From the NCBI GenBank assembly GCA_043777915.1, contig JAYWHB010000357.1, forward strand, positions 1 to 27,339: a DNA stretch of 27,339 bases, read 5' to 3'. Positions within the stretch are counted from its first letter, which is position 1; each line of letters starts with the position of its first letter. The position numbers were made by a program, and so were the translations under genes. Origin of the DNA: Deinococcales bacterium. Its GTDB lineage: Bacteria > Deinococcota > Deinococci > Deinococcales > JAAFIG01. Positions 79 to 27,339 of this stretch are shown here, one piece after another. The notes under the pieces were generated by a model. It was given only the letters and a program-made list of their open reading frames with translations. It did not search any database and had not been told where the DNA came from.

Positions 79-180
79 TTGTTACACGGGAAGCACTTAA
101 AATCCCAAGTCATTAACGCAATGCCATGCAAGACCCAAGACTCGAGAAGTGACATAAAACAATGAAATTTTGCGAGTAGC

Positions 181-211
181 TTGACTTAGAGTCCACTCCA
201 AGTTGTAAGGT
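181..211 (+). promoter_or_regulatory. MerR-type promoter/operator
   Basis: -35 TTGACT (181-186), 19-nt spacer, -10 TAAGGT (206-211). The dyad CTTAGAGT-CC-ACTCCAAG (185-202) overlaps the spacer. It lies 6 nt before the GTG of the MerR gene. Confidence 0.8.
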
Positions 212-217
212 TCAAGT

Positions 218-604
218 GTGACCGAATTGAGCATTCAGCAGACTGCCAAAAAAACGGGATTAAGTACCGATACCCTACGTTACTATGAACGCATTGGCTT
301 ATTGCGTCCAAACAGAGATGCCTCGAGTCGGCATCGGCGCTACACGCAAACTGACCTCGCATGGATTCAGTTCTTAAATCATTTGCGTTCAACTGGAATG
401 CCGTTGTCCGAGATACGAGACTACTTAGCGCTATTTCTCCAAGGCGATCAAACCCTAGCCATGCGTTTAACCATGCTTGAAGCCCACGCAAAGCAAGTCG
501 AGCAACAAATTGCTGATTTGCAAGCCAACTTAGTTGCTATTCGGCATAAAATTGCCCATAGCAAAGAGTGTACTACCAAGCCCACCACAGAGACAGAGTC
601 TTAA
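218..604 (+). CDS. MerR-family transcriptional regulator (AdhR/NmlR-like)
   Basis: N-terminal MerR HTH 'IQQTAKKTGLSTDTLRYYERIGLL...HRRY', coiled-coil dimerisation helix; GTG start just downstream of the -10. Confidence 0.93.
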   Translation: MTELSIQQTAKKTGLSTDTLRYYERIGLLRPNRDASSRHRRYTQTDLAWIQFLNHLRSTGMPLSEIRDYLALFLQGDQTLAMRLTMLEAHAKQVEQQIADLQANLVAIRHKIAHSKECTTKPTTETES

Positions 605-614
605 AAGGAGTTTT

Positions 615-1571: not shown

Positions 1572-1594
1572 AGATAGCAGCCAAAATGCACCAT

Positions 1595-1633
1595 TTTATT
1601 TTCTCGATTTCAAGCACGGCTTGAGAAAATAAA
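1595..1633 (+). terminator. Bulged stem-loop after the SDR gene, possible terminator
   Basis: TTTATTTTC pairs with GAAAATAAA and the inner TCAAGC-ACG-GCTTGA pairs; AT-rich stem and no clean U-tract on the + strand. Confidence 0.4.
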
Positions 1634-1720
1634 GAGATTGCTTAGGAATTGTCCCAGCGTTGGGGGAGTTCGTGACCAATTGCGTTTTTTCTCAGGCTTT
1701 TTGTTTTACTGCAAGACCCT

Positions 1721-3277: not shown

Positions 3278-4432
3278 ATGACTGTTCAATTATTTCGTTC
3301 TGATGCTTATTTATCTTCGTTTGAGGCTGTCGTTGTTCAGGTTCGAGAAGGCGCAGTTTGTCTGTCTCAAACCGCGTTCTACCCCGGTGGCGGTGGACAA
3401 GTTTATGACCTTGGCACATTAAATGGTGTACCTGTACAAAAAACCAGTCTCGAGGAAGGAAAAATCTGGCATCATTTGGATACCGATTTAAGTCTTGGCA
3501 CAGAGGTACATGGTCAGCTTGATTGGGCGCGGCGTTTTGACGCGATGCAGCAGCATACGGGTGAACATTTGCTTGGACAGGCTTTTTTTCGGCTGGGTTT
3601 CCATGTTTTAGCGGTCAATATGGAACATTCGGTTTGTACTTTGGATTTAACCGGGGTCACAACTTGGGAAATGGCAATGCAAGCCGAACAGATGGTTAAT
3701 GATGCAATTATAGCAGCGCTACCAATTAGTACCTATGAAGTACCAGACTCGGAAATTCATGCTGTTCCTTTGCGCCGCACGTCAAAAGTGCAGGGTTTAA
3801 TTCGGGTGGTACAAATTGGCGATTTTGATTACACGGCTTGTGGTGGAACGCACACCAGTAAAAGCTCCGAAGTTGGACTTCTAAAAATCCTTAAAATTGA
3901 ACGGATTAAAGGCACAGCCACCAGAATTTATTTTAATTGCGGAACACGCTTACTCGAGGATTACCGCTTCAAACACGATTTTGTGGCTTCTTTGGGTTTG
4001 CGTTTCTCGAGTGGCTTGGATTCTGTCCCTGAACGCACTGTGGCAGCCTTGAATGAACTCGGGGCTTGCAAACTGGAAATTTCACAATTGCAGACTCAAT
4101 TGGCAGCCCGAATTGCCTCGAGTTTTCTGCGTGGTGTGGTGGTGCATCTGCTAGACGATGCGACGCTGCTGCCAGAGCTTGCCAAAGCCTGTATTTTGCG
4201 TGAAAACCTGATTGCTATTTTGGGGGCAGTGGATGGTTCAAAGGCACTTTTGGCGGTGACTTGTGGGCGTAATACCAAAACCCAAGCGCGGGATGTTTTA
4301 GCGCTTGGGTTGCCGTTTATTGATGGTAAAGGCGGCGGAAAACCAGATTTAGCCCAAGGAAGCGGCTTAAAAACGACTGGCTTAGAAGCAGCTCTCGAGG
4401 CAATGCGGGCTTCTGCCCTCGAGACAGCATAG
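3278..4432 (+). CDS. AlaX-type alanyl-tRNA editing protein with C-terminal DHHA1-like domain
   Basis: 'TAFYPGGGGQ', zinc motifs QQHTGEH (HxxxH) and CGGTH, C-terminal 'GKGGGKPDLAQG'; GAGG RBS. Start is TTG 3275 or ATG 3278. Confidence 0.9.
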   Translation: MTVQLFRSDAYLSSFEAVVVQVREGAVCLSQTAFYPGGGGQVYDLGTLNGVPVQKTSLEEGKIWHHLDTDLSLGTEVHGQLDWARRFDAMQQHTGEHLLGQAFFRLGFHVLAVNMEHSVCTLDLTGVTTWEMAMQAEQMVNDAIIAALPISTYEVPDSEIHAVPLRRTSKVQGLIRVVQIGDFDYTACGGTHTSKSSEVGLLKILKIERIKGTATRIYFNCGTRLLEDYRFKHDFVASLGLRFSSGLDSVPERTVAALNELGACKLEISQLQTQLAARIASSFLRGVVVHLLDDATLLPELAKACILRENLIAILGAVDGSKALLAVTCGRNTKTQARDVLALGLPFIDGKGGGKPDLAQGSGLKTTGLEAALEAMRASALETA

Positions 4433-4486
4433 GTATCAGGCTAAGAGCCAAAGCCTTTCAGTACGCAAAAAATCACAGTCAGTCAG

Positions 4487-4614
4487 CCCCTCTCCCGTCT
4501 CGCTTAGGCTCGCCACCTGTTGGACTCCTTGCTGCTTTCTTCCTACGTTTCCACGAGCTTCGCTCGACCTGTTGCAGTCCCAAAAAACGCTTCGCTTGGG
4601 GAGGGTTAGTGAGT
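4487..4614. repeat. BoxC/REPIN-like structured intergenic element A
   Basis: CCCCTCTCCC (4487-4496) ... GGGGGAGGG-TTAGTGAG (4598-4614), with internal hairpins CGAGC-TTC-GCTCG (4554-4566) and CCCAA...TTGGG (4579-4600). Confidence 0.5.
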
Positions 4615-4704
4615 AGTGTTGACTTCTGTATATCTTGAAAGACGTGTGAAAACTGTGTTTTTTTGTTTCTAGCCCTCTATTTGAACAACAAAAGAAACCG
4701 AACA

Positions 4705-4765
4705 ACCCTCTCCCGCGCTTTTTGGCGGGATGAGGGTAACGAGCTTAAGCGAGTTGGGTGAGGGT
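4705..4765. repeat. BoxC-like intergenic element B
   Basis: Hairpin ACCCTCTCCCGC...GCGGGATGAGGGT followed by GGGTGAGGGT. GAGCTTAAGCGAG (4741-4753) matches the reverse complement of 4499-4511 at 12/13. Confidence 0.55.
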
Positions 4766-4903
4766 TGGAACGCGGTATGGGCTACTCCATTTTGAGCAAT
4801 GGGTTTTGTTGTTCTGAACTGTAAATTTCCTTGAACTGATGTCTGTGGGTGAATCTCTGTGTTCGCCCTCTTGACTCGAGAAACCCGTCTGGGACACCAG
4901 AAG

Positions 4904-5387: not shown

Positions 5388-8081
5388 ATGCAAGTTTCAA
5401 AACCGCTTTCTTCTGACCGTGATGCTTTACAAACAATCATGGCATTGTGTTCAACAGTTTTTATACCCGATGGTGTGGCGCTTTATGTGGTGGCTGGAAC
5501 TTCGATGCAGCGTGTGCTGGCAGAAGGTCTGGCTTTAGAGGTTGCCACCAGTTTTGATAAAGGTGTGGATGTTCCCGGACGGGTCTGGGCAAGTGCTGAA
5601 CCTTTGGTGGTACAACAATACCTGCATTGGTCAGAACGCACGATTCAACAAGCTGTTTCGGTGGTGGCGGCTGTGCCAGTGGTTTTAGAAAATACCGTGG
5701 CAGGGGTTTTGATGCTGATGTACCGCCAAGCGGTGCAACTGACCCCAGCCCAAGTGGTTCAACTCGAGCGTTTATCGGTGTTGGTGGCTTCGACCTTAGA
5801 AAACGGTTTTTTGCGCCAGCAATCTAAAAAGCAAACCCAAGCTCGAGCCGAGGATAAAGCCGCCCTATCCGAATTCGACCAGCGCCTACAACTCTTTGAA
5901 TCGGCGGTGCTGAACGCCGATGAGAGTGTTTTAATCAGTGAAATCGCTGTCCCAGACGATGGTAACGAACAGAATTCAAAAATTATCTTTGTCAATGCGG
6001 CTTTTTCTAATCTGATGGGCTTTTCGCCCCAAGAATCGCTTGGGCAGACGGCTGGTTTACTACGAGGGGCTTATGGTGATACCGATTTGTACCACCGTGC
6101 CAAAGCCGATTTGCGACTTGGCAAATCGGTTGATTTAGAAACGATTGAATATAAAAAAGATGGCACACCGCTTTGGGTGCAGCTTTCGATAGTGCCGATT
6201 CGCAACGAACTAGGGGTGATTACCAATCGTGTTTCGTGGCGGCGCGATATTACCGAACGCAAAAGCAACGAACTTCTGGAGGCATACCGCAATCGGGTTC
6301 TCGAGTTGGCGCTGCGTGGTGCGCCCCTCAACGAAACGCTGCAAACTTTAACGGGCTTACTCGAGAAGATTTTTGCAGGGTCAACGGCGGGTGTTTTTAT
6401 GCGTAAAGCCGAGCGTTTGGTTTTACAAGTCGCTCCCAATTGGCGACCACTGGTGCGTTCGCTGCTGGATGGTGTACCAATTGGTTTAGGGCATGGGACG
6501 GCTTCTTATGCGATTCTGGAGGCTGTGCCAGCCGTGGTTGAAGCGATTCAAGACGATCCGCGTTGGATCAATATGGATAGGGCAATGCTGATGAGTGGGG
6601 TGGCGAGTTCTTGGGCAGTCCCGATTTCTTCAGCAGACGGCGCGGTGATTGGGGCGCTTGAACTGCATTTTTCACGCAGCAGTGCGCCAACCCCCAGTCA
6701 ACTCGAGCATTTTGAAAATGTGGCACGTTTAGCCACCTTGGTGATTGAACGCAGCACCCTAATTGACCGCTTAGATGACCAAGCCAGTACCGATACCCTG
6801 ACCAAATTACCGAATCGTTACGGGGTCGAGCGTCACCTTGAGGGTGCCTTAAAAGTGGCGTTGCAACGCGGTTGGAAATTGGCGGTGCTGCAAATAGATT
6901 TAGATGGTTTTCGGCGAATCAACGACACCCTTGGACATGAGGTCGGCGATGAGGTGCTGCGAACCGTGACCGACCGTTGGCGTACCATTTTGCCGTCTCG
7001 GGATATGTTGGCGCGTCCGGGCGGCGACGAGTTTACTTTGGTGGTCCATCATTTAGAACAGGTTTCGGAAGCCGAAGCCCTAGCCAAAGAAATGCTTAAA
7101 GCCTTGTCTTATCCGCTTTCGATTCGGGGGGTGGAACTTTTTTTATCCGCCAGTATTGGAGCAGCCATTTACCCGGACGACGGCACAAGTGCCACAATTT
7201 TGCTGCGAAATGCCGACACCGCCATGAATGGGGTCAAACGCAGTGGTAAAAGTAATTTTAGACGTTTTGACCCTGCCATGAATAGCCTTGCCAAAGAACG
7301 CTTAAACACCGAAGTGTCTTTACGCCGTGCGCTTGAACGCAACGAATTTGTGGTGCGCTATCAGCCGCAAGTCAATGCTGCTCAACAAGTGATTGTGGTT
7401 GAGGCACTGCTTTACTGGCAGCATCCGCAAGAAGGTTTGGTTGCGCCGGGGCGGTTTTTACCAGTGGCGCTCGAGTCTGGTTTGATTGTGCCAATGGGTG
7501 AATGGATTTTACGCAAAGCCTGCCAAGAAGTCGGTCAATGGCGACGCGACGGCTTAAATGTGGCTTTGGCAGTCAACATAGATGTGCAGCAGTTAATGCG
7601 GGCAGATTTTTCGGATACGGTTTCTCGAGTCCTGCGAGAAACCAATTTTGACCCAAAAGCGCTTGAACTAGAAGTCACCGAAAGTGCTTTGATGAACGAT
7701 ACCGCCCTCGCTGCCGAGCGTTTGCAGCGTTTACAAGCCCAAGGGATTCAAACCGCCATAGATGACTTTGGCACGGGTTACTCGAGCCTAGCGTATTTAC
7801 AAAAACTGCCAGTTAATTCCTTAAAAATAGACCGCAGTTTTGTTTCGCATCTCGAGCCGGGTGATTCGGGTTGGTCTTTGGTCAAACTCATTGTTTTATT
7901 GGCGCGGCATGTTGGGATGAGCGTCGTGGCAGAAGGTGTGGAGACAAGAGCGCAATTTTTGGCGTTGCGTGATTTAGCGGTGGATCGTTCACAAGGCTAT
8001 TATTTTTCTAAACCTGTAGCAGCCATGGATTTATTGGGGCGCTTAAAAGCCCCGCGTAGCGCAACATCTTCGGTTGGCTGA
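5388..8081 (+). CDS. GAF-PAS-GAF-GGDEF-EAL diguanylate cyclase/phosphodiesterase
   Basis: GAF ('GVDVPGRVWASAEPLVV'), PAS/PAC ('IIFVNAAF...YKKDGTPLWV...RDITERK'), second GAF, 'DTLTKLPNR', GGDEF, EAL, 'DDFGTGYSSL', 'EGVET'. Confidence 0.95.
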   Translation: MQVSKPLSSDRDALQTIMALCSTVFIPDGVALYVVAGTSMQRVLAEGLALEVATSFDKGVDVPGRVWASAEPLVVQQYLHWSERTIQQAVSVVAAVPVVLENTVAGVLMLMYRQAVQLTPAQVVQLERLSVLVASTLENGFLRQQSKKQTQARAEDKAALSEFDQRLQLFESAVLNADESVLISEIAVPDDGNEQNSKIIFVNAAFSNLMGFSPQESLGQTAGLLRGAYGDTDLYHRAKADLRLGKSVDLETIEYKKDGTPLWVQLSIVPIRNELGVITNRVSWRRDITERKSNELLEAYRNRVLELALRGAPLNETLQTLTGLLEKIFAGSTAGVFMRKAERLVLQVAPNWRPLVRSLLDGVPIGLGHGTASYAILEAVPAVVEAIQDDPRWINMDRAMLMSGVASSWAVPISSADGAVIGALELHFSRSSAPTPSQLEHFENVARLATLVIERSTLIDRLDDQASTDTLTKLPNRYGVERHLEGALKVALQRGWKLAVLQIDLDGFRRINDTLGHEVGDEVLRTVTDRWRTILPSRDMLARPGGDEFTLVVHHLEQVSEAEALAKEMLKALSYPLSIRGVELFLSASIGAAIYPDDGTSATILLRNADTAMNGVKRSGKSNFRRFDPAMNSLAKERLNTEVSLRRALERNEFVVRYQPQVNAAQQVIVVEALLYWQHPQEGLVAPGRFLPVALESGLIVPMGEWILRKACQEVGQWRRDGLNVALAVNIDVQQLMRADFSDTVSRVLRETNFDPKALELEVTESALMNDTALAAERLQRLQAQGIQTAIDDFGTGYSSLAYLQKLPVNSLKIDRSFVSHLEPGDSGWSLVKLIVLLARHVGMSVVAEGVETRAQFLALRDLAVDRSQGYYFSKPVAAMDLLGRLKAPRSATSSVG

Positions 8082-8224: not shown

Positions 8225-9511
8225 ATGAACCAACACGAGCCACAAGCTCGCAATGAACCCCAAACCGAGGACTTAAACCTCTGGCACGCCTTTATTGACC
8301 AAATCGAAACCACCCAAAACTACTTTAGAGCCAGTTCAGAAACCCTCGAGTATCTGCGTCATCCTAAACGTATGGTCACGGTTTCCGTACCCGCCCGTAT
8401 GGACGATGGCAGTGTCCGTTTTTTTACCGGCTACCGAGTCCAACACAGCATTTCACGCGGACCTTCGAAGGGCGGAATCCGTTACCGGGCGGGCTTAAAC
8501 TTAGATGAAGTACGCGGTTTAGCCGCCGCCATGACGATTAAGTGTGCGGTCATGAACCTGCCATTTGGTGGTGCAAAAGGCGGCATAGACGTAGACCCAA
8601 AAACCCTCTCAAAACCTGAAATTGAACGCATGACAAGGCGCTACACCTCCGAATTGGTGGATTTAATCGGACCAGACAAAGACATTCCCGCCCCAGACAC
8701 TGGCACAAACGAGCAGGTGATGGCGTGGATTATGGACACCTTTAGCCAAAACAAAGGCAGTACCGTGACTGGTGTGGTAACTGGCAAACCCGTGGCACTT
8801 GGCGGCAGCATTGGCAGAGTCGAAGCGGCTGGGCGCGGCATTGCCTATAGCATCTTTGGGGTAGCGAGGCGCGAAAACATCAACTTAGAAAAAGCCAGTG
8901 CCGCGATTCAAGGTTTTGGCATGGTCGGACGTTACGCTGCCCTAGGCTTATATGAACGCGGTGTGCGAATTGTGGCGGTTTCTGACTCGAGTGGCGCGAT
9001 TTACGCCCATGACGGCTTTGATATTCCAGCCCTGCTCGAGTATAAAAACCAGCACGGCACGATCATCGGGTTTAACGGCGCAAAACGCATAGACCACGAA
9101 TCGCTACTGACTTTACCCGTAGATATTCTTGTGCCAGCCGTGCGCGAAGGCGCAATTCATGTCGGTAACGCCGCCAAAGTCGAAGCCCAAATCATTGCCG
9201 AAGGCGCAAATCATGCCATCACCAGACAAGCCGACACCATTCTCGAGCGCGAAGGACGGGTCATCATCCCCGATTACTTAGCCAATTCGGGTGGTGTAAC
9301 CGTTTCTTATTATGAATGGGTACAAGATTTTAACAACTTTTACTGGACAGAAGACGAAATCCGAAGCAACCTAGAACAACATATTCAACACGCCCTAGAC
9401 AGTGTGTACGCCGTAAAACTCGAGCGCGATGTCAATTTGCGTCAAGCCGCATTTATTCTGGCAGTCAGCCGAATCAACGAAAGCACCAACTTACGTGGCT
9501 TATACCCATAG
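8225..9511 (+). CDS. gdhA: Glu/Leu/Phe/Val dehydrogenase, orthologue-like of the Thermus regulatory subunit GdhA
   Basis: 'TLEYLRHPKRMVT', 'GPSKGG', 'KCAVMNLPFGGAKGG', 'QGFGMVG', 'AVREGA', C-terminal 'LRGLYP'; upstream gene of a tandem gdh pair. Confidence 0.9.
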   Translation: MNQHEPQARNEPQTEDLNLWHAFIDQIETTQNYFRASSETLEYLRHPKRMVTVSVPARMDDGSVRFFTGYRVQHSISRGPSKGGIRYRAGLNLDEVRGLAAAMTIKCAVMNLPFGGAKGGIDVDPKTLSKPEIERMTRRYTSELVDLIGPDKDIPAPDTGTNEQVMAWIMDTFSQNKGSTVTGVVTGKPVALGGSIGRVEAAGRGIAYSIFGVARRENINLEKASAAIQGFGMVGRYAALGLYERGVRIVAVSDSSGAIYAHDGFDIPALLEYKNQHGTIIGFNGAKRIDHESLLTLPVDILVPAVREGAIHVGNAAKVEAQIIAEGANHAITRQADTILEREGRVIIPDYLANSGGVTVSYYEWVQDFNNFYWTEDEIRSNLEQHIQHALDSVYAVKLERDVNLRQAAFILAVSRINESTNLRGLYP

Positions 9512-9525
9512 AGAACAGCGGAAAA

Positions 9526-9553
9526 CAAAGCTCATAGCCCATAGCTCATAGCC
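9526..9553. repeat. Heptamer tandem repeat CA(A/T)AGC(T/C) x4
   Basis: CAAAGCT CATAGCC CATAGCT CATAGCC between gdhA and gdhB. Confidence 0.7.
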
Positions 9554-9570
9554 CTCCACAGGAGACAAAA

Positions 9571-10851
9571 ATGCACCAACATGAAGTTCCTTCTTACTTA
9601 AATCACGATAACCTAGGACCTTGGGAAATTTACCTCGAGCAAGTAGACCGTGTGACCCCATACCTTGGGAAACTTGCCTACTGGGTCGAGACCTTAAAGC
9701 GCCCAAAACGCATTTTGATTGTGGACGTACCAATTCAACTCGATGATGGCAGCATTGCCCATTTTGAAGGCTACCGTGTCCAGCACAACAGTTCACGTGG
9801 ACCCGGTAAGGGAGGGGTGCGCTATCACCAAGATGTAACGCTTTCAGAAGTGATGGCATTAAGCGCTTGGATGACGGTTAAAAACGCGGCGGTAAACCTG
9901 CCTTATGGCGGCGCTAAAGGCGGAATTCGGGTAGACCCACGAAAATTATCGCGTGGTGAACTCGAGAAGATGACACGGCGCTACACCTCGGAAATCAACT
10001 TTATTATTGGACCAGACAAAGACATTCCAGCCCCCGATGTCAACACCAACGAACTGACGATGGCATGGATGATGGACACCTACAGCATGAACCAAGGACG
10101 CACCGCTACAGGTGTAGTGACCGGTAAACCAATTGCCCTTGGTGGCAGCCTCGGCAGGCGTGATGCGACTGGGCGCGGTGTCTTTGTGGCTGGACGCGAA
10201 GCTGCTAATCGTATTGGTTTAGACATTGCGGGGTCTCGAGTCACGGTGCAGGGTTTTGGTAATGTTGGTAATGCGTCGGCAAGAATTTTTCATGACCACG
10301 GTGCAAAAGTCGTAGCGATTCAAGACGTGTCTGGCACAATTTTTAATGGCGACGGCATCAACCCACACGACCTGCTCGAGTTTATGAAACAAAATCCAGA
10401 TGTGACCGCCTACCCGAAAGCCACAACCATAGCCAAAAATGATTTCTGGAATGTCGAAACCGAATTTTTAATCCCCGCCGCTTTAGAAAAACAAATCACC
10501 CTCGAGAATGCCCACTTAATCAAAACCCGTATTGTGGTCGAAGGTGCAAACGGACCGACCACTCCAGCCGCCGATGATGTCCTGCGTGAACGCGGCATTA
10601 TTGTTGTGCCGGACGTGTTAGCAAATGCTGGTGGTGTGACGGTAAGCTACTTTGAATGGGTGCAGGATTTTAGCAGTTTCTTTTGGACAGAAGACGAAAT
10701 CAACAAACGTTTAGAAAAAATCATGGTTGAAGCCTTTAAGGGCATTTGGGATGTCGCCCAAGATAAAAACGTGACAATGCGAACCGCAACTTTTATTGTG
10801 GCGTGTACTCGAGTTCTCGAGGCGAGGGCATTGCGTGGGTTGTACCCTTAG
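9571..10851 (+). CDS. gdhB: Glutamate dehydrogenase catalytic subunit (Thermus GdhB-like)
   Basis: '[18 protein letters not shown]', '[15 protein letters not shown]', 'QGFGNVG', '[12 protein letters not shown]'; RBS AGGAG. Confidence 0.93.
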
Positions 10852-17017: not shown

Positions 17018-17794
17018 ATGTCTCGAGATACCGGTATTTTTAAGGACAATCACTTTTTACTCTTAGCGCCAGCCAATGCGCGAATCCCAAGCGTATTTTC
17101 TCGAGTTGAAGAAAACAAAGATGTACACGAGGCATGGCTGACCAAGCTCCAGCAGTTGCGTGGCAAGGTTTTTTTAGAAGATGGGGCAATTAAAGAAAGT
17201 CATTTAGACGAACAAGGTAGGCACATTTCAAAACATGATGTTCTTTCATGGCATTACTTGGCATTAAGTCCCGAAGAGCAATTGCGTGGTGTAATGCGTT
17301 GCCAAGTTTGGTACACCAGTGAACGTTTGCCTGAGCTTTGTGACCTCAATTTATACGTTCTGCTCGAGCGAATGCAGAATCTCGAGTTGCGCCAAAAATT
17401 CACAACTGCCTTAACTACCTTTATTCACCAGCCCAATGAACAGGCTTGTTTTGTAGAAATATCCGCCTTAGCAGTGGATAAAGCCAGCCAAGGATTCACC
17501 ATTGGTTCAATGCTAGGGGTTTCTGCATACTCGCTTGCCAACATCATAGATGCTTATGCGGGAGTCGGAGCAGGTACAGACCGACACCACACAGCACGGT
17601 TTTACCACAAGCTCGGAGGAATCAGTTTCAGAGACCCAAGTAACCCAGAAGAAATCTTGCCACCGTTTTTTGATACTGGTTACGACTGCCAAATGGACAT
17701 CATGGGATTTATAGACCCAGCCCCTTCAGTTAATGAAATGGTCAGAATTGTAGAAGAAAAACTTTGTGCAGCACAGGTTTATGTCAATCGGTAA
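17018..17794 (+). CDS. GNAT-fold acyltransferase, LuxI/FeeM (N-acyl amino acid synthase)-like
   Basis: 'QLRGKVF...D...D..SWH' LuxI-like N-terminus, 'FVEISALAVDKASQG' acyl-binding strand, 'ARFYHKLG'; RBS AAGGAG 12 nt after the HDO stop. Confidence 0.6.
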   Translation: MSRDTGIFKDNHFLLLAPANARIPSVFSRVEENKDVHEAWLTKLQQLRGKVFLEDGAIKESHLDEQGRHISKHDVLSWHYLALSPEEQLRGVMRCQVWYTSERLPELCDLNLYVLLERMQNLELRQKFTTALTTFIHQPNEQACFVEISALAVDKASQGFTIGSMLGVSAYSLANIIDAYAGVGAGTDRHHTARFYHKLGGISFRDPSNPEEILPPFFDTGYDCQMDIMGFIDPAPSVNEMVRIVEEKLCAAQVYVNR

Positions 17795-17832
17795 CGGCTC
17801 GAGAATTCTAGTTTGAAGTAAAGGAGTTAGAT

Positions 17833-19029
17833 ATGCCAGAATTTGGTGTCACACTAAAATTCCATCCTGATGGTGCATTAGGTATTGGTGCAACGCTTTC
17901 ATTCGATCATGACAGCCTAAAGCCAAAAAGTATTCTATTTCAAGACATAAGAAAACTTTTTCAGAAAACTGATGCTAGGAATCAAGAACAAATCAAAAAA
18001 TTCACTGAAGCTATCCAATTCTCCGCTAAACAATACATATCTCCAAGTGTGGATTTATTTAAGATGCCGACATATCTTAGTGATGTTAAGGAACAAGCAA
18101 GTATTACGGCAGTCATCAGTGGCAAAGGTGGAGTTGGAAAAACAAGTATTGCATTAGGTTTGACCGAATATTACTCGATTAGCGAAAATACCTTATTGGT
18201 CGATTTTGATTTACATAATCGAGGACTGACCTCGAAATTTGGAAAACTGGGTTCAGATACAAGTTCTGTATTGAGTCAGATGCAAAGATTTTCAAAAGAA
18301 ATCTTATCGGACACATTATTTTTCCCTTCAAATCGAAACATTCAAATGCCTGCGGACTTAGAAACATTTGTCAAACTACGGGATAAATTCACTTATCAAT
18401 CAACAGGCATTCTGCATGAGTTGCACAGTGAGTTTTTATACGCAGAAAAACATAGACAAACAGATATTGACGAAACTGGAGTCAGACCAAAAAACTGCTT
18501 TTTCTTACCGAGTCGAAAGCCATCCGAATCTTTTTTGGGTTCACCAGAGTCGGGTTTTGGGTTTGGGGAGGTTGTTCTTTTCTTAAAGTATTTAAGCACT
18601 TTGGCGCACAGACATGGGGTGACAAGAATTATTTTAGACTGTCATGGAGCGCATGATTTATTTATGGTAGGAGCAATTATAGCCGCAGATAATTTAGCTA
18701 TTGTGACCCAAGCAGACTTAGCCGCATTTGAAGGAACAATAGAGCTAGTCAAGTTTACCGAAGCCTTAACAAGCCCTACAAGTCTTGCAAAACGTCAAGG
18801 GATTTTAGTATTCAATGAGTATGACTCCAAAGACGAATTATTGGCTAAAACGCTGTTTAATGCGTTTTATAGTACCCATCCACATGCAGGTACATTTGAA
18901 GATTCACCCAAGATTTTAACGAGTACCACAATGAAAAATATGTTACTTCATTATGCTAGACCTCAAATACTTTGCACAGAAGGTATCAAGGAAGCCATTC
19001 AATCAATCGGTAAAAAGTTTCATCCGTAA
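17833..19029 (+). CDS. ParA/MinD-family P-loop ATPase with N-terminal extension
   Basis: Deviant Walker A 'SGKGGVGKTS', 'LLVDFDLHNRGL', Walker B 'IILDCHG', 'IVTQAD'; RBS AAGGAG. Confidence 0.8.
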   Translation: MPEFGVTLKFHPDGALGIGATLSFDHDSLKPKSILFQDIRKLFQKTDARNQEQIKKFTEAIQFSAKQYISPSVDLFKMPTYLSDVKEQASITAVISGKGGVGKTSIALGLTEYYSISENTLLVDFDLHNRGLTSKFGKLGSDTSSVLSQMQRFSKEILSDTLFFPSNRNIQMPADLETFVKLRDKFTYQSTGILHELHSEFLYAEKHRQTDIDETGVRPKNCFFLPSRKPSESFLGSPESGFGFGEVVLFLKYLSTLAHRHGVTRIILDCHGAHDLFMVGAIIAADNLAIVTQADLAAFEGTIELVKFTEALTSPTSLAKRQGILVFNEYDSKDELLAKTLFNAFYSTHPHAGTFEDSPKILTSTTMKNMLLHYARPQILCTEGIKEAIQSIGKKFHP

Positions 19030-19106
19030 TTGTTGAATTTGCGTCTTACGGAAATGCAATCTATTTTTCTTTTTTCAATATCCGACACTATTTTGGAGGT
19101 TATCTA

Positions 19107-19820
19107 ATGAAAACGAATTCGACACCAAACATGGTTGCCTCTTATTTGAATGTGCGTTTTGCAATAGGAGTTTTGGCAGTATCTTTACCATTCTTGCTAC
19201 TTTTGATTTGCCTAATTTATAGCATTCAAATACAAGAGTCTGTCAGTGCTTTTTATTACGTTCCACAAGCAAGAAATTGGTTTGTTGCAATCCTTTGTTG
19301 TGTTGGCATATTTCTGCTTTGTTATCGTGGTTATCCTGTAGGTCCAAAAATTCCTATTTTGCATAAGTTGAGTGAAACACTACTGCACCGAATTATGGGG
19401 TTTTCGGCTATTGCAGTAGGTATGCTGCCTACTACTCATCCATATTGTAAAACAGAAAAAGGATGTCCTCCGAATTGGAATTGGATAGATACATCCGCCG
19501 CTACACTTCATGTGTTTTTTGCTGTACTTTTATTCTCTTCTATGGCAGTTGTTGCATATTTCTACTTTCCTAATCTTCAATTCAAGACACAGAATTTGAA
19601 GCAGAGAACGCAGGAAAGAAATGGTCACATTTACAGGGCTTGTGGCATGGTTATCTTTTTTGTCGGGATTGTTTGGGGAATTCTAAGGATTGTCAACATA
19701 GAAACTTTGACACTGTTCTGGGTGGAGTTGCTTTGTGTTATTGCCTTTGGTTTTGCATGGCTTGTTAAAAGTCATCTTTCTTTGAAGCAATTTTTAAGCT
19801 CAATAACTCCAAGTCCGTAA
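19107..19820 (+). CDS. Multi-pass membrane protein (DUF998-like)
   Basis: About 6 hydrophobic helices; 'IGVLAVSLPF...SVSAFYY...RNWFVAILCCVGIFLLCYRGY', 'LHVFFAVLLF'; RBS GGAGG. Confidence 0.65.
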   Translation: MKTNSTPNMVASYLNVRFAIGVLAVSLPFLLLLICLIYSIQIQESVSAFYYVPQARNWFVAILCCVGIFLLCYRGYPVGPKIPILHKLSETLLHRIMGFSAIAVGMLPTTHPYCKTEKGCPPNWNWIDTSAATLHVFFAVLLFSSMAVVAYFYFPNLQFKTQNLKQRTQERNGHIYRACGMVIFFVGIVWGILRIVNIETLTLFWVELLCVIAFGFAWLVKSHLSLKQFLSSITPSP

Positions 19821-19920
19821 CCTGAAATTGGGTAATGAAGTGGTAAGCCTGCAATTCAAGTTTTTATTTTTATAGTGTGCTTAACAGAGCTTATTACTCT
19901 TTTGAAAAGAGGTTATTCAA

Positions 19921-20274
19921 ATGGAAAAAGATGAATCAAGGGCGAGAATTTGGAGTCAAAACCTCACAGAAGAAATTGATTTAGAACTACGCAAAGGGAA
20001 ACTTGGTTGGGAAATTAAAAAAATGTTGATTGAAAAAAATCATGATGCGAATGTAGTCAGTGAATTAATCGCTAAAGTGCAGGCAACTCGAAATGAACAA
20101 AATCAGGATTATCAAGAAATTGCTTCAGGTAACGTCGAAAGCGGCTGCTTGTATTTAATTGGAGGTGGTTTATTAAGTATTTTAATGGGTCCAATAGTTT
20201 TTATTGGCTTAATTTCTATGGGACTTCTCCGATTAGGTTTGGGTATCTTTCAGATGACACAAAAGAATAAATAA
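19921..20274 (+). CDS. Hypothetical protein with C-terminal hydrophobic/Gly-rich membrane segment
   Basis: RBS AAGAGG, ATG start, charged N-terminus then 'LYLIGGGLLSILMGPIVFIGLISMGLLRLGLG'. Confidence 0.65.
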   Translation: MEKDESRARIWSQNLTEEIDLELRKGKLGWEIKKMLIEKNHDANVVSELIAKVQATRNEQNQDYQEIASGNVESGCLYLIGGGLLSILMGPIVFIGLISMGLLRLGLGIFQMTQKNK

Positions 20275-20443
20275 ATGTAGTGCTAGTCAAGCCATTCTTT
20301 GACTCGAAATAACAACTGCAAGATGGAGTACATCGTTTTTGAATCGGCTCGCCCAGCAGCTTTGATTGAAAGTTTGTGCAGGCAAATTCAGGAAAAACTC
20401 AAAACCACGCTTGTCTTGGCGCATTAAAACCTTGGAATTTAAC

Positions 20444-21889
20444 ATGGAAAATAACGTTGAACATCTTAAAACTTGGTTTAGAGAATTCTGCTCGGAACGC
20501 ATGGATTTTATGCAGTCCGATGAGCGCCGCACCCTCCCACCGCATTTATTTCTCGAGCTAGGACGCAAAGGATTTTTTGGTCTCGAGGGCGCAGTAGAAC
20601 ATGGTGGTTTAGCCCTGAAACCATCCCAAGCCATTCAGGTTATGGAAACAGTGGCTTCGGTGGATATGTCGGTGGCAACGCTATTATCCGTTCATAACTT
20701 TTTGTCACTTAAGCCCTTGCGTCAGTATGGCTCTGAATCGGTAAAATCCACGCTTCTACCCGATGCCATTAGCGGACGTAGATTGGCTGCCATTGCTGTG
20801 ACCGAACCAAACGCGGGTTCTGACCCAAGGCGTATCGAAACCAGTTTGGTTTCTCGAGATAACAAATTCGTTTTGAATGGCACAAAATCTTGGATTGGGG
20901 CGGGGGCTTGGTCTGGTGTATTGGTCACACTGGCAAGGCATGAACAAGGTTTTACTGCCGTGTGCTTGGATTCAAATACCAAAGGCATTGTGCAGGGACT
21001 CGAGAGCATGACCCTTGGAATGCGTGGTGTGATTCAAAACAGTGTTCATTTCCAAAATGTTCATGTTTGCCAAGAAAATCTGCTTGGGGACGTTGGTAAG
21101 GGCGCGGAGATTATTCAAAACTCGTTTCGTTTCACCCGAATTTCAATTGCTGGTTGTTGCCTCGGGATGATTCGTACTGCTCTAGCGGTTGCCATAAGTT
21201 ACGCCAAGAATCGGAAAGTCTCGACGGGTTTACTGATTAATAATTCGTACAGCACAAGTGTACTCTCGGAAATTCTCGAGAAGTCTGAACAAATTAGTCA
21301 ATTCTTAAATGCCATAGCTCCGATGCTGGACACCGAAGAAACCGTGGATGAATTTGTTTCTTTAGCGGCTAAAATTGTTGTCCCAGAAATACTTTGGACT
21401 GCGTTAGACCAATGCTTGCAGATGCTCGGCGCTAGGGGTTACACCGAAAATAACTTGATTGCCAGAATGCTGCGGGATGCTCGAGTGATGCGAATTTTTG
21501 AAGGACCAACCGAAGCACTGGCTAGTCATCTTGGGCGGTATTATTTGTTGCAACCCGAGAAAATATTTAACTTTTTGGAAGAGCAATTTGGTAAGGAAAA
21601 AAGCACTCAAGCACAATGTTTACTGGAAAAATTTCACTCGAGCATCAAGATTTTTGCACAGGACAAAAATTTCTTACCTGTTTTTATTGGTATGGCAACC
21701 GCACAAGTTATTTTTTTGTACTTCTCGAGCAGCGACCCAAGTTTAGCGATTCAGTTGGAACTCGAGAAGATTGTACTCAAAACGCATTATCTCAGCACCA
21801 AGAAAACCACATCAGACGAGCTTGTACACCAAATTGAATCTGGTTATTTGAAAAACTATGTTGACTCGAGAAAGGAGTTGGTTTTATGA
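20444..21889 (+). CDS. Acyl-CoA/acyl-ACP dehydrogenase
   Basis: 'DERRTLPPH...HGGLAL', 'AIAVTEPNAGSDP', 'LNGTKSWIG', 'LGARGY', catalytic 'IFEGPTE'. Likely start ATG 20444 (track start 20366). Confidence 0.9.
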   Translation: MENNVEHLKTWFREFCSERMDFMQSDERRTLPPHLFLELGRKGFFGLEGAVEHGGLALKPSQAIQVMETVASVDMSVATLLSVHNFLSLKPLRQYGSESVKSTLLPDAISGRRLAAIAVTEPNAGSDPRRIETSLVSRDNKFVLNGTKSWIGAGAWSGVLVTLARHEQGFTAVCLDSNTKGIVQGLESMTLGMRGVIQNSVHFQNVHVCQENLLGDVGKGAEIIQNSFRFTRISIAGCCLGMIRTALAVAISYAKNRKVSTGLLINNSYSTSVLSEILEKSEQISQFLNAIAPMLDTEETVDEFVSLAAKIVVPEILWTALDQCLQMLGARGYTENNLIARMLRDARVMRIFEGPTEALASHLGRYYLLQPEKIFNFLEEQFGKEKSTQAQCLLEKFHSSIKIFAQDKNFLPVFIGMATAQVIFLYFSSSDPSLAIQLELEKIVLKTHYLSTKKTTSDELVHQIESGYLKNYVDSRKELVL

Positions 21890-23080: not shown

Positions 23081-26000
23081 ATGCGTCGTTGGTTTGCCAT
23101 TATTGCTGGGATAGTTGTGTTGTTGGGACTGGTGGTCTTTTTGGCTGCGGGTTCACAACCAGCCTTGCGTTTTGCCTTGGCGCAAGCTAAGGCGGCTGGC
23201 TTTGAAATTGATGCCAAGACGCTGCGTGGCAATTTGTTCTTGGGTGTCGAAGCCGTGGATGCCACCGTCAAAAGTGCTTTTATTAACGGCTCTGGGGCTT
23301 CGGTCAAAGCAAAATACAACCTTCTAACATTACTGCAAAAAAAAGAGCTTCGGCTCGAGGCAGCCGTTTCTGGTGGGCGATTAAGTTTTGACCCTGCTGG
23401 CTTGCCACCAGTGCCAGAGGGCGGCGAACCACCACCAATTCATGTTTTCTTGGATTCGGCTGCTTTGTCAGACACGGTTCTCGAGTTTGTTGGCAAGAAC
23501 ATTTTTGTGCCAGACGCGAAGGTCACACTACTCAGCCAAAGTGCGCTGCCAAGTCAGAACGGCAAGACCAGAGGCAATGTGCGGGTCAAGCTCGAGTCCA
23601 AAGACGGTGGCGGCTTTGCCACCGCCTTGTATGAATTTGGCAAGGATTTTGAGCCAAATCTGGTGATTGATACCGAACTCGATGCCTCAGTTGCCAATTA
23701 CTGGTTAAAACCGATTCCAATGGATATTCAGGGCGGCAAGTTGCGTGGCACGGTGCGGGTCACGGCAACCAGTGTGTCGGCAGAGGCGGTTCTCGAGAAT
23801 GGGGCGGTTGAAGTATTGCCCAATCTTGTGGCTTCTAACATCGCTGGTCAGGCTTCGTTTGATACAAACGGCTTGGTCAAAGCCAAATTAACAGGGCAAG
23901 GTTTGGGCGGTAGTCTACAAGCCGATTTTGAACTAGATACCAAGCCTAAACAGGAGTATTGGAAAATTAACGGGAAGCTAGTTCCGCGTTTGGAGCAAAT
24001 CATGAAAACCTTTGCCAATAGCACACCCGGTAAGGGCGCACTCGAGGTGACAGTTTCGGGTGGCGGTTGGCAGAAACTCAAACTTAACGGCACGGTCAAA
24101 GGTTTAGAAACCCTTGAAGCGGCAGGTTTTCCAGTGCAGAATTTGCGTGGCACTTGGCAATTTACTGACCATCTCGAGGCGAGCGCATCGGCAGTCACAA
24201 AAATTGGAATGGATAGCTTAAATGCTGTGGCAGACATCAAAAGTGTTGGTGAAAAAATTGTTATTACCCCAGAATTAACGGGGAATTTTTTGAATGCGCC
24301 GCTCGAGCTAAGTGGGTTAGTAGAAGTGCTGGGCGAAAAAATTGAGATTAACGCAGGTGGCGCAATTTTACGTGGTGATATTGGCGCTAACGTTGACTTA
24401 CAAGGCGAAAAGATTTCTGGGACTGGTAAATTTGGCAGTGTCCAGTTACCACTTCCTAAACCAGTTGTTTCGAGTGTCAACGGCACAGCCAAACTTTCTG
24501 GAACAGTAAATAATTTATTGATTGCAGGTTTTTTGAATCCAGCCAGTCTCGAGATTCCAGCAATTGACTTAAACAACATTTCGGGAGCATATAAACTACG
24601 TTTTAATGGCAAAGCATTGACCGCCGAAGCCAACCTTGCTGACGGTGCAATCGTAGCAAATGGGGCAATTATCAATACCGATGGTACGCCCGCTCGAGGC
24701 AGTGTTTTTGTGCGCGGGCTGCGTTTTGAACCCGGTGGTCAAGCCGATTACAACGCCCAGTATGTACTGAACGGGGCGGGGATTGCTTTAGCAGGGGTGG
24801 CTCGAGGCTACAATCTAAAGTTTGGAGAAGTCAAACTCGATGACCTTACTGGGGTGCTGAGCGTGGCTGTGGGACAAGAAATTCGTGGACGCTGGAATGC
24901 GAGTAAATTACTGGCAACCTTCACCGATAAATCGCTCAATCTGCGCCCTCGAGACTGGCGGGTTCGGGCGGCTGGCGAAACTGCTTTTGTGGGCGGCGAC
25001 ATGACTTTGACCTATGACCAATTAAAAACCAGTGGGAAACTGACTGGCAAAACGCGCTTTGGCACAATCACGGCACTTGGGCAAGGTTCACAAATTGGTT
25101 TGTCGGGCAGGGCAGGTTTTAATGGGCTTCAAGCGGCGCTCAGTGGGGCGTTGCAACTCGAGCCGTTTAATTTGCGTTTGGCGGCAGTGCCACAAAATAA
25201 ATCTCTTGGTGGAAAAATTCTGCTTGAGGCTGACCAAGACTTTCGAGTCAGTGGCAACTTAGAGAGCAATGGGCAGGATTTACAAATTGGTTTTACGAAG
25301 ACTGGTTTAAGCGCCAAGGGCAAACTGGATTTAAGTGCTTTAGTGCCAGTATTCCCAGTTGGTACAAGGGATTTACTAAAAGGCATTGCCGATATAAATA
25401 TTTCCGACTCGAGTGGTACTGGCTTGGTGCGTGGGGTGGTGGCTCGAATTCCGATTGAAGCCCAACTTCGCTCCAACAATCTGCAAATTTCTACCGAGGC
25501 TCGAGTGACAGGTGGGCAATTTGCGGGGGCAACCGTGTCTGGGGCAGTTTTTCCCAGTGTCAATGCTCGAGTGAATTACGCGGGGCTGTCGGCTCGAGTG
25601 CGTGGTTCGTATGACAATCTTGGAATTAACGGCAGTGGTTCGTTGCCAGCTTCGTTATTGTCTGGAACTGGATTATCCTTAGCCAGTAATCAATTTGCTG
25701 TAACTGGACGTTTTCAAAATAATGTACTCACTGCCTCGGGGAAAGTTGGGGCGTTACAAATTCGCAATGCCAAACTCGAGAATGGGGTGCTTGGCGCAGA
25801 TTTTAGCGGGGATTTAGTGGGGACTTACCAAGCAGAACCTTTGCGTTTACAAGGTCTGAACGGCACAATTGAACAACGCGACTCGAGACTGGAAGTTCGT
25901 GCCACGGCAAAAAGCGCTTTGGGGGTATTCAGGGGGAGTCCTATTTCGGCTGGAGGAGTAACAGCGAATTTTAGTCAGCAGAACAATAAAAATATCATTC

Positions 26001-27339
26001 GGTTTACTGCCTCGAGTGCCACGGGGACTTTTTCGGGGATCAAAACCCAAGTCAGCAATGCCAGTGGGGTGCTGAATCTAACCGGTAATGCCCTAGATTT
26101 AGAAGCCAAAGCCAGTCGTGCCACGGCGCAGACATCGGCGGGTCTGGTGATGGCTTTGGGTCTAAGTGCCACAAGCCAAGGCGTGGTGGAACGCTTACCG
26201 ATTCGTTTTAAGGCAGCCAAACTCGAGGCGACTGGTTTTGAGGCGAACGCCCTGTTAAATCAAGTCAATGGCACGGTCACAATCGCACAAAGCCAGAGTT
26301 TTACCGCCAATTTTGAATCTGGCAGTGTGCAACACCCAGAAGCGAACGCCACCATTGGGGCTGGGCAGATTTCTGGGAATTTACGTGGTCAAAGTCTCGA
26401 GACTCGTTTTTCACTGCCCGTGTTAAATGCCACGGCTCGAGGAGAAAATGCCAAAATCAGTGCCAAAGGAAGTTTAGGACTGAACTTGGAGCAACCAACC
26501 AAGAACTGGCGTGGCAATCTCGAGGCAACTGCACTTGGGCGCGACTGGCGTTTAGGTGCATCTGGGAATTGGCAGAATTTGAATGTCACGGGTTATGTTC
26601 CGACCCGTCTCTCGAGTTTAGCTGGGGTGGAATTACCAAAGTATTTACAAACCAACGTGGCGATAAACGGCACACTTGGTTTACCGAGTCTGCAATACAA
26701 TCTAGGACTGATTGCCAAACTTCCAGCCTTGCAGTTAAACGCCAGCCTCAAGGGACAAAACACGGTTTTTCAAGCTCGGCTCGAGGCAAAGGATACGGCA
26801 AAGGGTAAAGGCACACTTGTTTATGCTTCTAGTGGTTTGGCTTCGGCAGATTTTAGCAACTTGGATATAACCGCTCTCAGTCAAGTCCAAGGCACAATTT
26901 CAGGGCAGCTTGCACTGGACAAAAAATCTTTGCGGGGCAACTTAAACGGCAATTTGGCAGGGTTTCCGATTTCAGCAACTTGGCTCGAGAATGATGCTTT
27001 TAGCGGCGAAATTGGTGGGGCATTACCCGTTCAAATAAAGTCTGGTAAATGGCTTTTTCCACTCGAGGCGATTATTGAACTTGAAACCCAAGCCTCCGAA
27101 CTGCCGATTCGTGGCAAGGCTTCACTAAACCTCTCAAGCCTTCGCGGGCAGGGGCAACTCGAGTTACTGGCATACAAACAAAGTCTTGGCAATGGCGAAC
27201 TGATTTTGAAGCCGCAAGTCATGCCTTTTCAAGTGGCGCTACAAGATGGTTTGCGTTTTCGGCTCGAGAACCCTGCTGGGGCATTGCGTTTTGCGGCTGA
27301 ATCTTGGAGTGGTCAGCTTAGTTTGGCGTACTCGGCTTT
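23081..27339 (+). CDS. Giant TamB/AsmA-like (translocation and assembly module) protein, partial, runs off the window
   Basis: Frame starting ATG 23081 (MRRWFAIIAGIVVLLGLVVFLAAG..., N-terminal membrane anchor) stays open at every point checked to the window end (>1,400 codons). Gly/Leu/Thr-rich beta-strand repeats. Absent from the track because it has no stop. Confidence 0.8.
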   Translation, partial: MRRWFAIIAGIVVLLGLVVFLAAGSQPALRFALAQAKAAGFEIDAKTLRGNLFLGVEAVDATVKSAFINGSGASVKAKYNLLTLLQKKELRLEAAVSGGRLSFDPAGLPPVPEGGEPPPIHVFLDSAALSDTVLEFVGKNIFVPDAKVTLLSQSALPSQNGKTRGNVRVKLESKDGGGFATALYEFGKDFEPNLVIDTELDASVANYWLKPIPMDIQGGKLRGTVRVTATSVSAEAVLENGAVEVLPNLVASNIAGQASFDTNGLVKAKLTGQGLGGSLQADFELDTKPKQEYWKINGKLVPRLEQIMKTFANSTPGKGALEVTVSGGGWQKLKLNGTVKGLETLEAAGFPVQNLRGTWQFTDHLEASASAVTKIGMDSLNAVADIKSVGEKIVITPELTGNFLNAPLELSGLVEVLGEKIEINAGGAILRGDIGANVDLQGEKISGTGKFGSVQLPLPKPVVSSVNGTAKLSGTVNNLLIAGFLNPASLEIPAIDLNNISGAYKLRFNGKALTAEANLADGAIVANGAIINTDGTPARGSVFVRGLRFEPGGQADYNAQYVLNGAGIALAGVARGYNLKFGEVKLDDLTGVLSVAVGQEIRGRWNASKLLATFTDKSLNLRPRDWRVRAAGETAFVGGDMTLTYDQLKTSGKLTGKTRFGTITALGQGSQIGLSGRAGFNGLQAALSGALQLEPFNLRLAAVPQNKSLGGKILLEADQDFRVSGNLESNGQDLQIGFTKTGLSAKGKLDLSALVPVFPVGTRDLLKGIADINISDSSGTGLVRGVVARIPIEAQLRSNNLQISTEARVTGGQFAGATVSGAVFPSVNARVNYAGLSARVRGSYDNLGINGSGSLPASLLSGTGLSLASNQFAVTGRFQNNVLTASGKVGALQIRNAKLENGVLGADFSGDLVGTYQAEPLRLQGLNGTIEQRDSRLEVRATAKSALGVFRGSPISAGGVTANFSQQNNKNIIRFTASSATGTFSGIKTQVSNASGVLNLTGNALDLEAKASRATAQTSAGLVMALGLSATSQGVVERLPIRFKAAKLEATGFEANALLNQVNGTVTIAQSQSFTANFESGSVQHPEANATIGAGQISGNLRGQSLETRFSLPVLNATARGENAKISAKGSLGLNLEQPTKNWRGNLEATALGRDWRLGASGNWQNLNVTGYVPTRLSSLAGVELPKYLQTNVAINGTLGLPSLQYNLGLIAKLPALQLNASLKGQNTVFQARLEAKDTAKGKGTLVYASSGLASADFSNLDITALSQVQGTISGQLALDKKSLRGNLNGNLAGFPISATWLENDAFSGEIGGALPVQIKSGKWLFPLEAIIELETQASELPIRGKASLNLSSLRGQGQLELLAYKQSLGNGELILKPQVMPFQVALQDGLRFRLENPAGALRFAAESWSGQLSLAYSA

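Follow-up and report, generated by a model that had tools for sequence, protein, structure and literature searches.

What makes one six-base palindrome, CTCGAG, so common in a piece of Deinococcales DNA, and what keeps it there? The piece, called the window throughout, is the whole of contig JAYWHB010000357.1 of a Deinococcales bacterium, 27,339 nucleotides (nt) long, in which CTCGAG was located by exact search. It holds 121 sites, running from 141-146 to 27263-27268, which agrees with the roughly 120 copies between 141 and 27268 reported in a first-pass annotation. That annotation had also estimated the enrichment at about 18-fold; the enrichment is real, but the figure was too low, as 100 dinucleotide-preserving shuffles of the window contain on average 2.99 copies (standard deviation 1.98, maximum 11) and base composition predicts 5.8, which corresponds to a 20-40-fold excess. 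The sites occupy all three reading frames (72 as CTC GAG, 22 as xCT CGA Gxx and 13 as xxC TCG AGx), with 14 more in 3.0 kb of non-coding DNA, a spread over frames and spacers that had been anticipated.

141..27268, no strand assigned: CTCGAG array of 121 sites, 4.9 per kb outside a 2.75-kb insert

The array adds an independent member, from another phylum, to the class of highly iterated palindromes (HIP) to which the cyanobacterial HIP1 belongs, and it is denser than HIP1. Almost certainly, point substitutions create the word and a DNA-level force then preserves it, throughout the genome and over long evolutionary time, whatever the frame, strand or gene position; this holds for all members of the uncultured Deinococcales family concerned.

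Abundance in the genome and in the family

The assembly that holds the window (genome G000; other genomes are likewise given a G number where they have to be told apart) consists of 4,280,359 bp in 824 contigs, with 47.4% GC and an estimated completeness of 89%. The genome-wide hexamer count proposed with the first-pass annotation gives 22,488 copies of CTCGAG (5.25 per kb or roughly one in 190 bases, 24 times the zero-order expectation), which make it the commonest hexamer of this genome, 3 times above its own overlapping neighbours, and 70% of all TCGA tetramers lie inside it. Its flanks show no base preference, apart from an avoided 8-mer, CCTCGAGG, so the motif is exactly six bases long and an extended motif around it was rejected. 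All contigs of at least 3 kb carry at least 2 CTCGAG per kb, and the stretch itself was found in several independent biofilm and sediment metagenome runs belonging to more than one study.

The excess is not confined to the window, but is genome-wide and family-wide. The family is represented by 19 genomes of five genera, mostly incomplete metagenome bins, together with one closed genome of 5.1 Mb (G013), and CTCGAG reaches 4.3-6.8 per kb in all 19; the sampled members, which range from 45 to 59% GC, all carry 14.6-29 times the expected number. Enrichment is mild in a sister family (1.4-2.3 per kb, 1.6-2.6 times a synonymous shuffle), families with high-GC genomes of 2.1-2.4 Mb have a raw density of 0.9-2.9 per kb, and a Deinococcus-like family is depleted to 0.09 of expectation; the trait is specific to its lineage, as had been supposed. 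The ribosomal protein L2 of G000 obtains its top scores with Deinococcus ribosome entries of the PDB (1NKW and related ones, which we take to be Deinococcus radiodurans), followed by Thermus thermophilus, with Bacillus far lower, a ranking that places the lineage in the Deinococcota and not in the cyanobacteria and bears out the idea of a HIP-type palindrome outside that phylum. No published report of abundant CTCGAG was found in literature searches; a preprint on hot-spring genomes includes CTCGAG among methylated motifs and is silent on its abundance.

Independence from coding

Amino-acid demand had been considered insufficient, alone, to account for the sites, and the coding sequences (CDS) confirm it. 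When codons are shuffled synonymously so that every protein and the codon usage of its gene (a usage already inflated by the motif) stay the same, the called CDS retain 1,661 +/- 41 CTCGAG against 17,038 observed, an excess of about 10-fold overall and of 9-fold, 10-fold and 16-fold in the individual frames. A codon-pair-preserving shuffle keeps CTC-GAG pairs by construction and is unusable as a null, so the coding question was answered by intergenic density instead: CTCGAG reaches 5.58 per kb in the short gaps between confident genes and 5.30 per kb in CDS. Its density is also flat over gene starts and stops, which led to the rejection of a positional role at promoters, gene starts or terminators. 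tRNA genes contain 6 sites against 28 expected.

Of the positions where CTCGAG is synonymously possible, the word fills 62%, 48% and 37% in frames 0, 1 and 2, respectively. Furthermore, the force behind it reaches the protein sequences, since Leu-Glu dipeptides number 16,355 against 7,302 expected (2.24-fold), while the reverse dipeptide Glu-Leu stands at 7,085 (0.97-fold), and CTCGAG is the spelling of 61% of the genome's Leu-Glu pairs. Tripeptides able to hold the word in the other two frames are over-used 1.3-1.4-fold, and the Leu-Glu excess recurs in the other sampled family members (2.0-2.3-fold), compared with 1.1-1.3-fold in outgroups. A DNA word of 6 bp can therefore shift a proteome, in this case by approximately 9,000 extra Leu-Glu pairs.

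Conservation, turnover and spacing

Conservation was analysed against the closest sampled relative, G002 (256 kb aligned, 91% identity), and against the congener G006 (156 kb, 74% identity). In the G002 alignment CTCGAG leads the 1,227 hexamers with at least 150 occurrences each in conservation (89%, against 64% for all hexamers), and in the G006 alignment it ranks first of 914 (60% against 22%). Divergence is 2-6% over exactly the six positions of the motif, whereas the flanks average about 9.5% (5-13% by codon position), and sites are conserved at 90% in non-coding DNA and at 84-89% in each frame, where their flanks predict 52-57%. These divergence data cannot tell selection from biased transmission.

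How sites differ between genomes can be followed at individual positions of a multi-genome alignment of the window:

9242..9247, no strand assigned: CTCGAG kept in 7 of 7 aligned same-genus genomes
10375-10380, 5763-5768 and 6702-6707: CTCGAG kept in every genome aligned there
7624..7629, no strand assigned: CTCGAG of this genome only; relatives have CAAAGG, CTAGGG or CACGGG, with the position ungapped
7053..7058, no strand assigned: proto-site, TTAGAA (Leu-Glu) in this genome

At the proto-site, G002 and G005 have TTAGAA or TTAGAG, G003 has CTTGAG, and G004 and G007 have CTCGAG. Since the relatives' hexamers at 7624..7629 align without gaps, their differences at this site are due to substitution and not to insertion. 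Many sites in the genes of the window are lineage-specific, and these mostly align ungapped to TTAGAA, CTTGAA, CTAGAA and similar Leu-Glu codon pairs, which again implies that sites differ by substitution; in these alignments, Leu-Glu codon pairs are the places at which CTCGAG sites vary from lineage to lineage. The comparison of orthologues suggested earlier found sites that differ between relatives by ungapped substitutions, including Leu-Glu positions with other codons.

The spacing of the sites is near random, except that they are scarce within about 65 bp of each other: the pair correlation is 0.3 at 6-14 bp and rises to 1.0 at about 70 bp. The sites are evenly distributed (variance/mean 0.84 at 500 bp), with only 4 gaps of more than 2 kb in the genome. 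No long-range or helical periodicity was found beyond the codon period of 3 in the G000 contigs, which average 5 kb.

Purge of other palindromes

G000 carries a second signature, the near-absence of many other palindromes. Of the 64 palindromic hexamers, 35 are found at less than 10% of expectation and 28 at less than 4%, and 23 of the purged words have 0-20 copies in 4.3 Mb; in 4.28 Mb, GACGTC and AGGCCT have 0 copies, GTGCAC 2, GAGCTC 3 and GGCGCC 4. The tetramer GGCC, with 109 copies in 4.28 Mb (0.008 of expectation), is missing from the window (0 in 1-27339), GATC stands at 0.13 of expectation, and the degenerate restriction-type words GRCGYC and GDGCHC are nearly absent too. The few remaining copies of purged palindromes are scattered, without clustering on suspect contigs. 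Avoidance extends to codon pairs, as Glu-Leu is almost never spelled GAGCTC (2) or GAGCTG (8) and Leu-Glu is seldom spelled CTGGAG (57). The avoided 8-mer palindrome CCTCGAGG, which contains CTCGAG, has 114 copies, about 10 times fewer than the other NCTCGAGN words (1,100-1,800 each), suggesting a separate restriction-type avoidance that overlaps CTCGAG.

The purged set is nearly identical in G000 and G002, different in the congener G006, and different again in another genus and in outgroups. As fractions of expectation, GTGCAC stands at 0.00 in G000 and 0.84 in G006, AAGCTT at 0.08 and 1.24, and GATATC at 0.01 and 0.58; at 74% identity, this means the loss of about a thousand sites per word since the split from G006. 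This is the pattern expected of restriction avoidance with a fast-changing repertoire. The purged set is labile, whereas the CTCGAG enrichment is constant across the family, so the two signatures have different dynamics.

Foreign, repeated and phage DNA

Two segments of the window lack the word:

17804..20551, no strand assigned: CTCGAG-free stretch of 2.75 kb, 37% GC, with a ParA-like gene and two open reading frames (ORFs) without Pfam match
4424..4874, no strand assigned: copy of a dispersed intergenic repeat, without CTCGAG, with dozens of copies in the genome and in same-genus relatives

The first is the second-longest CTCGAG-free gap in the assembly, and in the relative G004 the sequence joins about window position 17794 directly to about 20736, so that a segment of about 2.9 kb (17795-20735) is absent; 17804-20551 is probably recently inserted foreign DNA. 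The segment interrupts the HDO/FeeM-like/acyl-CoA dehydrogenase gene cluster of the window. The stretch contains no purged palindrome and no GGCC, although an estimated 15 or so such words would be expected by chance, and, being free of both purged words and CTCGAG, it appears to have passed the restriction filter without having acquired the tag. No relative of its ParA-like protein was found in IMG/VR. Copies of the dispersed repeat have on average 0.95 CTCGAG per kb, with no consistent CTCGAG at their ends. The copy at 4424-4874 is modular, with modules of about 90 bp and about 270 bp.

A pattern scan of IMG/VR recovered tailed-phage contigs that carry both signatures, for example 3300010354_016671 (L281) and 3300036945_001045 (L277). 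One encodes terminase, portal and head-morphogenesis proteins and another major tail, tape-measure and tail proteins. CTCGAG occurs in these contigs at 3-4 times the synonymous shuffle in all frames, and its density in spacers is as high as 10 per kb; of the palindromic hexamers, 18-19 are missing altogether. Judged by these two signatures, they are probably viruses of this clade, with putative hosts; no homology or spacer-like match linking them to G000 was found.

Two further features of the window stand apart from these segments. Positions 1-99 recur at 98-100% identity at contig ends in this and related assemblies, being a repeat that breaks the assembly. Positions 8225-10851 hold two tandem glutamate dehydrogenase genes (428 and 426 aa), whose best matches, at 70-75% identity, come from Deinococcus and, unexpectedly, from many Burkholderiales.

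DNA exchange and self-marking as possible causes

The single most likely mechanism, although only a tentative one, is that CTCGAG acts as a watermark of kin DNA, recognised at some sequence-specific stage of DNA uptake or of homologous recombination. Alleles with CTCGAG would be taken up or recombined more often and would replace alleles without the word, a spread by molecular drive that need not benefit the cell. The palindrome purge would then reflect restriction of exchanged DNA, as the negative counterpart of this heavy traffic in DNA, and the protein that reads CTCGAG would apparently not be a family-wide methyltransferase.

Deinococcus and Thermus are naturally transformable, and both ComEC and DprA, which are needed for transformation and are weak evidence of it, are present in G000. 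Besides these competence genes, support for an uptake or recombination tag comes from the many restriction systems that the methyltransferase genes of G000 indicate (see below), from the saturation of spacing at short range, from the word-free insert and repeats and from the analogy with HIP1, which raises transformation efficiency in two cyanobacteria and has been proposed as an uptake signal (Rodriguez-Cruz 2026, PMC13756078). Repulsion below 65 bp with otherwise random spacing is as expected if one tag per short fragment suffices. The constancy of the word over five genera and 45-59% GC, compared with a purged set that varies within a genus, also counts in favour of a kin-DNA watermark.

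Several points weigh against it. ComEC and DprA occur in most bacteria, and no receptor for CTCGAG was identified. Known uptake sequences are non-palindromic words of 9-12 nt, while CTCGAG is a palindromic hexamer, and the effect of HIP1 on transformation needs methylation, for which no conserved methylase was found in the CTCGAG-rich family. The tailed-phage contigs with both signatures are not predicted by uptake-driven accumulation, unless they derive from long-resident prophages (the hosts are putative). Finally, ordinary selection acting site by site, or biased repair, explains the conservation of the sites equally well. A wider proposal, which we regard as speculative and improbable as a whole, is that CTCGAG would be a methylation-independent mark of self, recognised by a sequence-specific protein, that, together with the species-specific purge of about 35 restriction palindromes, forms a two-filter system over the DNA that is kept in the whole family, both filters having been copied by resident phages. 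If it were true, a positive tag plus a negative restriction screen would govern DNA retention across a bacterial family.

The alternative that survives best, although it is more doubtful than plausible, is an array of selected self-markers or binding sites, in which an abundant sequence-specific protein would bind the sites and ordinary purifying selection would keep them. The word could be a Chi-like signal at which a nuclease stops, so that the cell's own DNA is spared, or a binding site of a nucleoid-organising protein, and resident phages would copy the mark. The 6-bp conservation footprint, equal in coding and non-coding DNA, is in favour of such an array, as are the even density and the scarcity of gaps over 2 kb, and the tailed-phage contigs (with terminase, portal, tape-measure and major tail genes) fit it best of all the readings, although they share no homology with G000 and their hosts are putative. 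HIP1 has been read in a similar way (Xu et al. 2018, PMC5861425). However, no candidate binding protein or nuclease was identified, the word-free 2.75-kb insert and the repeat family are tolerated, and Chi sites are asymmetric and strand-skewed, unlike the palindromic CTCGAG.

Methyltransferases and repair

A further possibility, on balance an unlikely one, is that the word is a functionless by-product of methylation-linked biased repair, in which a CTCGAG-specific methylase or mismatch endonuclease would convert near-sites into sites by Elhai's ratchet or by a very-short-patch process like that of Vsr. Several facts make this attractive: a 6-bp palindrome is a typical type II target, such repair would affect all DNA inside the cell, that of phages as well, and it would mimic selection in divergence data. 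Alternate cyanobacterial HIPs, moreover, accompany matching methylases (PMC4390886). The first-pass annotation had proposed a link of this kind to a CTCGAG methyltransferase and to repair, and it was followed through the gene content of the family.

About 15 DNA methyltransferase genes or fragments were found in G000: four C5 methylases and one fragment, two beta-class, four HsdM-like, two TaqI-like and one D12 enzyme, plus other N6_Mtase matches that are partial or weak. Their number indicates many restriction systems. Vsr was not found in this genome, which is 89% complete, and a search of 13 family genomes, G000 included, found no member of the XhoI nuclease family (PF04555). XhoI-type systems do occur in the order, since the nuclease family is present in 4 genomes of sister families, and nuclease genes without internal stop were found in G021, G033 and G045. 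In G031, of a sister family, a locus at 3830-6227 of L172 (G031:C1:1090000-1099000) contains a gene for a TaqI-like methylase of 583 aa and, after it, an XhoI-family nuclease gene that is broken up by stop codons; this locus is not depleted in CTCGAG (17 sites in 9 kb, 65% GC). Taking the G031 enzyme as the reference CTCGAG methylase, no orthologue was found in any of the 19 family genomes, where the best match was 27% identical.

The methylases present are distributed sporadically, in all 7 cases followed up. The C5 methylase on contig C777 is restricted to the same genus, the one on C504 is patchier and missing from G006, and no C5 methylase was found in G010, which is 91% complete and has 4.3 CTCGAG per kb. 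No beta-class methylase was found in the closed genome G013; the TaqI-like enzymes on C556 and C78 occur in only one or two close relatives, and the gamma-class enzyme of G006, a genome poor in methylases, was found in a single further genome. The D12 methylase on C245 is shared with two other genera and with a sister family at 55-70% identity and is missing from the five other same-genus genomes searched. No family-wide orthogroup was found among the C5, beta, D12, TaqI-like and XhoI-type enzymes, in a sample of mostly incomplete bins and with specificities that cannot be read from sequence.

The D12 enzyme deserves a separate comment, as its gene lies on the minus strand of contig C245 (L197:3083-5009) and encodes a 279-aa adenine methylase that overlaps a 365-aa ORF without Pfam match. 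This partner has 365 aa in G000 and 397 aa in G011, and across genera the methylase is 69% and the partner 55% identical. The pair is probably a mobile restriction system, with the partner as a candidate restriction nuclease of an undescribed family.

The base-level pattern speaks in the same sense, given that repair by a Vsr-type enzyme should deplete the deamination products of CTCGAG. No such depletion is seen in G000: CTTGAG and CTCAAG stand at 1.07 times expectation, transition neighbours are about at expectation and transversion neighbours below it. The avoidance of CCTCGAGG is a further, weak argument against methylation that protects the sites. With neither Vsr nor the XhoI nuclease nor an orthologue of the XhoI-type methylase, with sporadic methylases and undepleted CTTGAG and CTCAAG, the proposed methylation and repair link is unsupported; the negatives in gene content leave the methylation hypothesis without support, short of excluding it.

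Coding by-product and artefact

It is very improbable that CTCGAG is a by-product of codon usage, of amino-acid composition or of the avoidance of other words that leaves Leu-Glu with little but this spelling. In its favour, CTGGAG (57) and CTGGAA (178) are rare among Leu-Glu pairs, many other words are purged, and frame 0 holds 59% of the coding CTCGAG sites. The intergenic and off-frame data refute it, as the word is as dense between genes as within them and is enriched 10-16-fold in the other two frames; moreover, the Leu-Glu dipeptide is itself over-used 2.2-fold and the conservation footprint extends to non-coding DNA. Codon usage covers most of the signal in the mildly enriched or depleted sister families, but not in the CTCGAG-rich family.

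An artefact of cloning, linkers, assembly or binning, or contamination, which might come to mind because CTCGAG is a common cloning site and metagenome bins are chosen by oligonucleotide composition, was rejected and has a negligible chance of being the cause, as the sites lie in frame in conserved genes and align base for base with independently assembled relatives, the excess is found in 19 of 19 family genomes (the closed one among them) and on every contig of at least 3 kb, and the stretch occurs in the runs of several samples and studies.

Comparison with known systems

CTCGAG shares with cyanobacterial HIP1 (GCGATCGC) the character of a short palindrome that is over-represented (15-300-fold), occurs in all frames and in spacers, spreads by substitution, is conserved beyond its flanks and is common to a whole lineage. 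HIP1 is said to have been described from cyanobacteria by Robinson in 1995, and in 1997 it was reportedly found by Robinson to arise by substitution and not by insertion of an element. CTCGAG shows the over-representation, frame independence, conservation beyond flanks and origin by substitution of the HIP class, and is not HIP1 proper, whose core CGATCG has 7 copies in G000. HIP1 sites are also conserved between related genomes beyond their flanks, and are periodic at 10-90 kb (Xu 2018, PMC5861425). HIP1 reaches 1,000-2,000 per Mb, with a methyltransferase for the word present where the word is abundant (Elhai 2015, PMC4390886), and the 5,250 CTCGAG per Mb are 2.5-5 times this density. The two differ in that CTCGAG belongs to Deinococcota and not to cyanobacteria, is a 6-mer instead of an 8-mer and distorts the proteome (Leu-Glu 2.2-fold), and in that HIP1 accompanies DmtA and DmtC, whereas no conserved cognate methylase was found for CTCGAG. 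Alternate HIPs of cyanobacteria, namely GGCGCC in Calothrix PCC 7103, GCsGC and rCCGGy (Elhai 2015, PMC4390886), are also palindromes of hexamer scale that are hyper-abundant in one lineage, with related restriction-type words under-represented. They are, however, found in single strains with newly gained matching methylases, while CTCGAG is stable over 5 genera and 45-59% GC with methylases turning over.

Like the DNA uptake sequences (DUS) of Neisseria and the uptake signal sequences (USS) of Pasteurellaceae, CTCGAG is a word hyper-abundant across a family, with an even distribution; it imposes itself on coding sequence and is lacking in recently acquired DNA. For the accumulation of DUS and USS, molecular drive by way of biased uptake is an established model. 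These are asymmetric words of 9-12 nt that occur about once per kb and, for DUS/USS, have a known receptor, ComP, whereas CTCGAG is an exact palindromic hexamer with flat flanks, without the asymmetry or the extended consensus of an uptake sequence. Chi sites, recognised by RecBCD or AddAB, are likewise short over-represented words that mark a cell's own DNA, some of only 5 nt (Bacillus), although, unlike CTCGAG, they are asymmetric, oriented with replication and only a few-fold enriched. The XhoI/PaeR7I restriction-modification systems recognise the same word, CTCGAG, and occur in sister families, but their nuclease family and an orthologue of their methylase were not found in the CTCGAG-rich family. 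Restriction-site avoidance explains the second signature of G000, namely the near-absence of about 35 of 64 palindromic hexamers, GGCC, GATC and degenerate sites in a species-specific set, at a depth of purge unusually strong for this process; a 24-fold excess of a single word cannot come from a process that removes words.

In practice, CTCGAG is a sharp marker of native versus foreign DNA in the genomes of this family and serves to recognise their phages. For 30 years HIP1 has lacked an explanation, in part because a single phylum was known to have it and the same two methylases always came with it. The Deinococcota case is denser, uses a different word and is stable across genera and base compositions, with no conserved methylase found, and its comparison with HIP1 could separate general features of such words (drive or selection at the DNA level, and a link to exchange and restriction) from those that are cyanobacterial.

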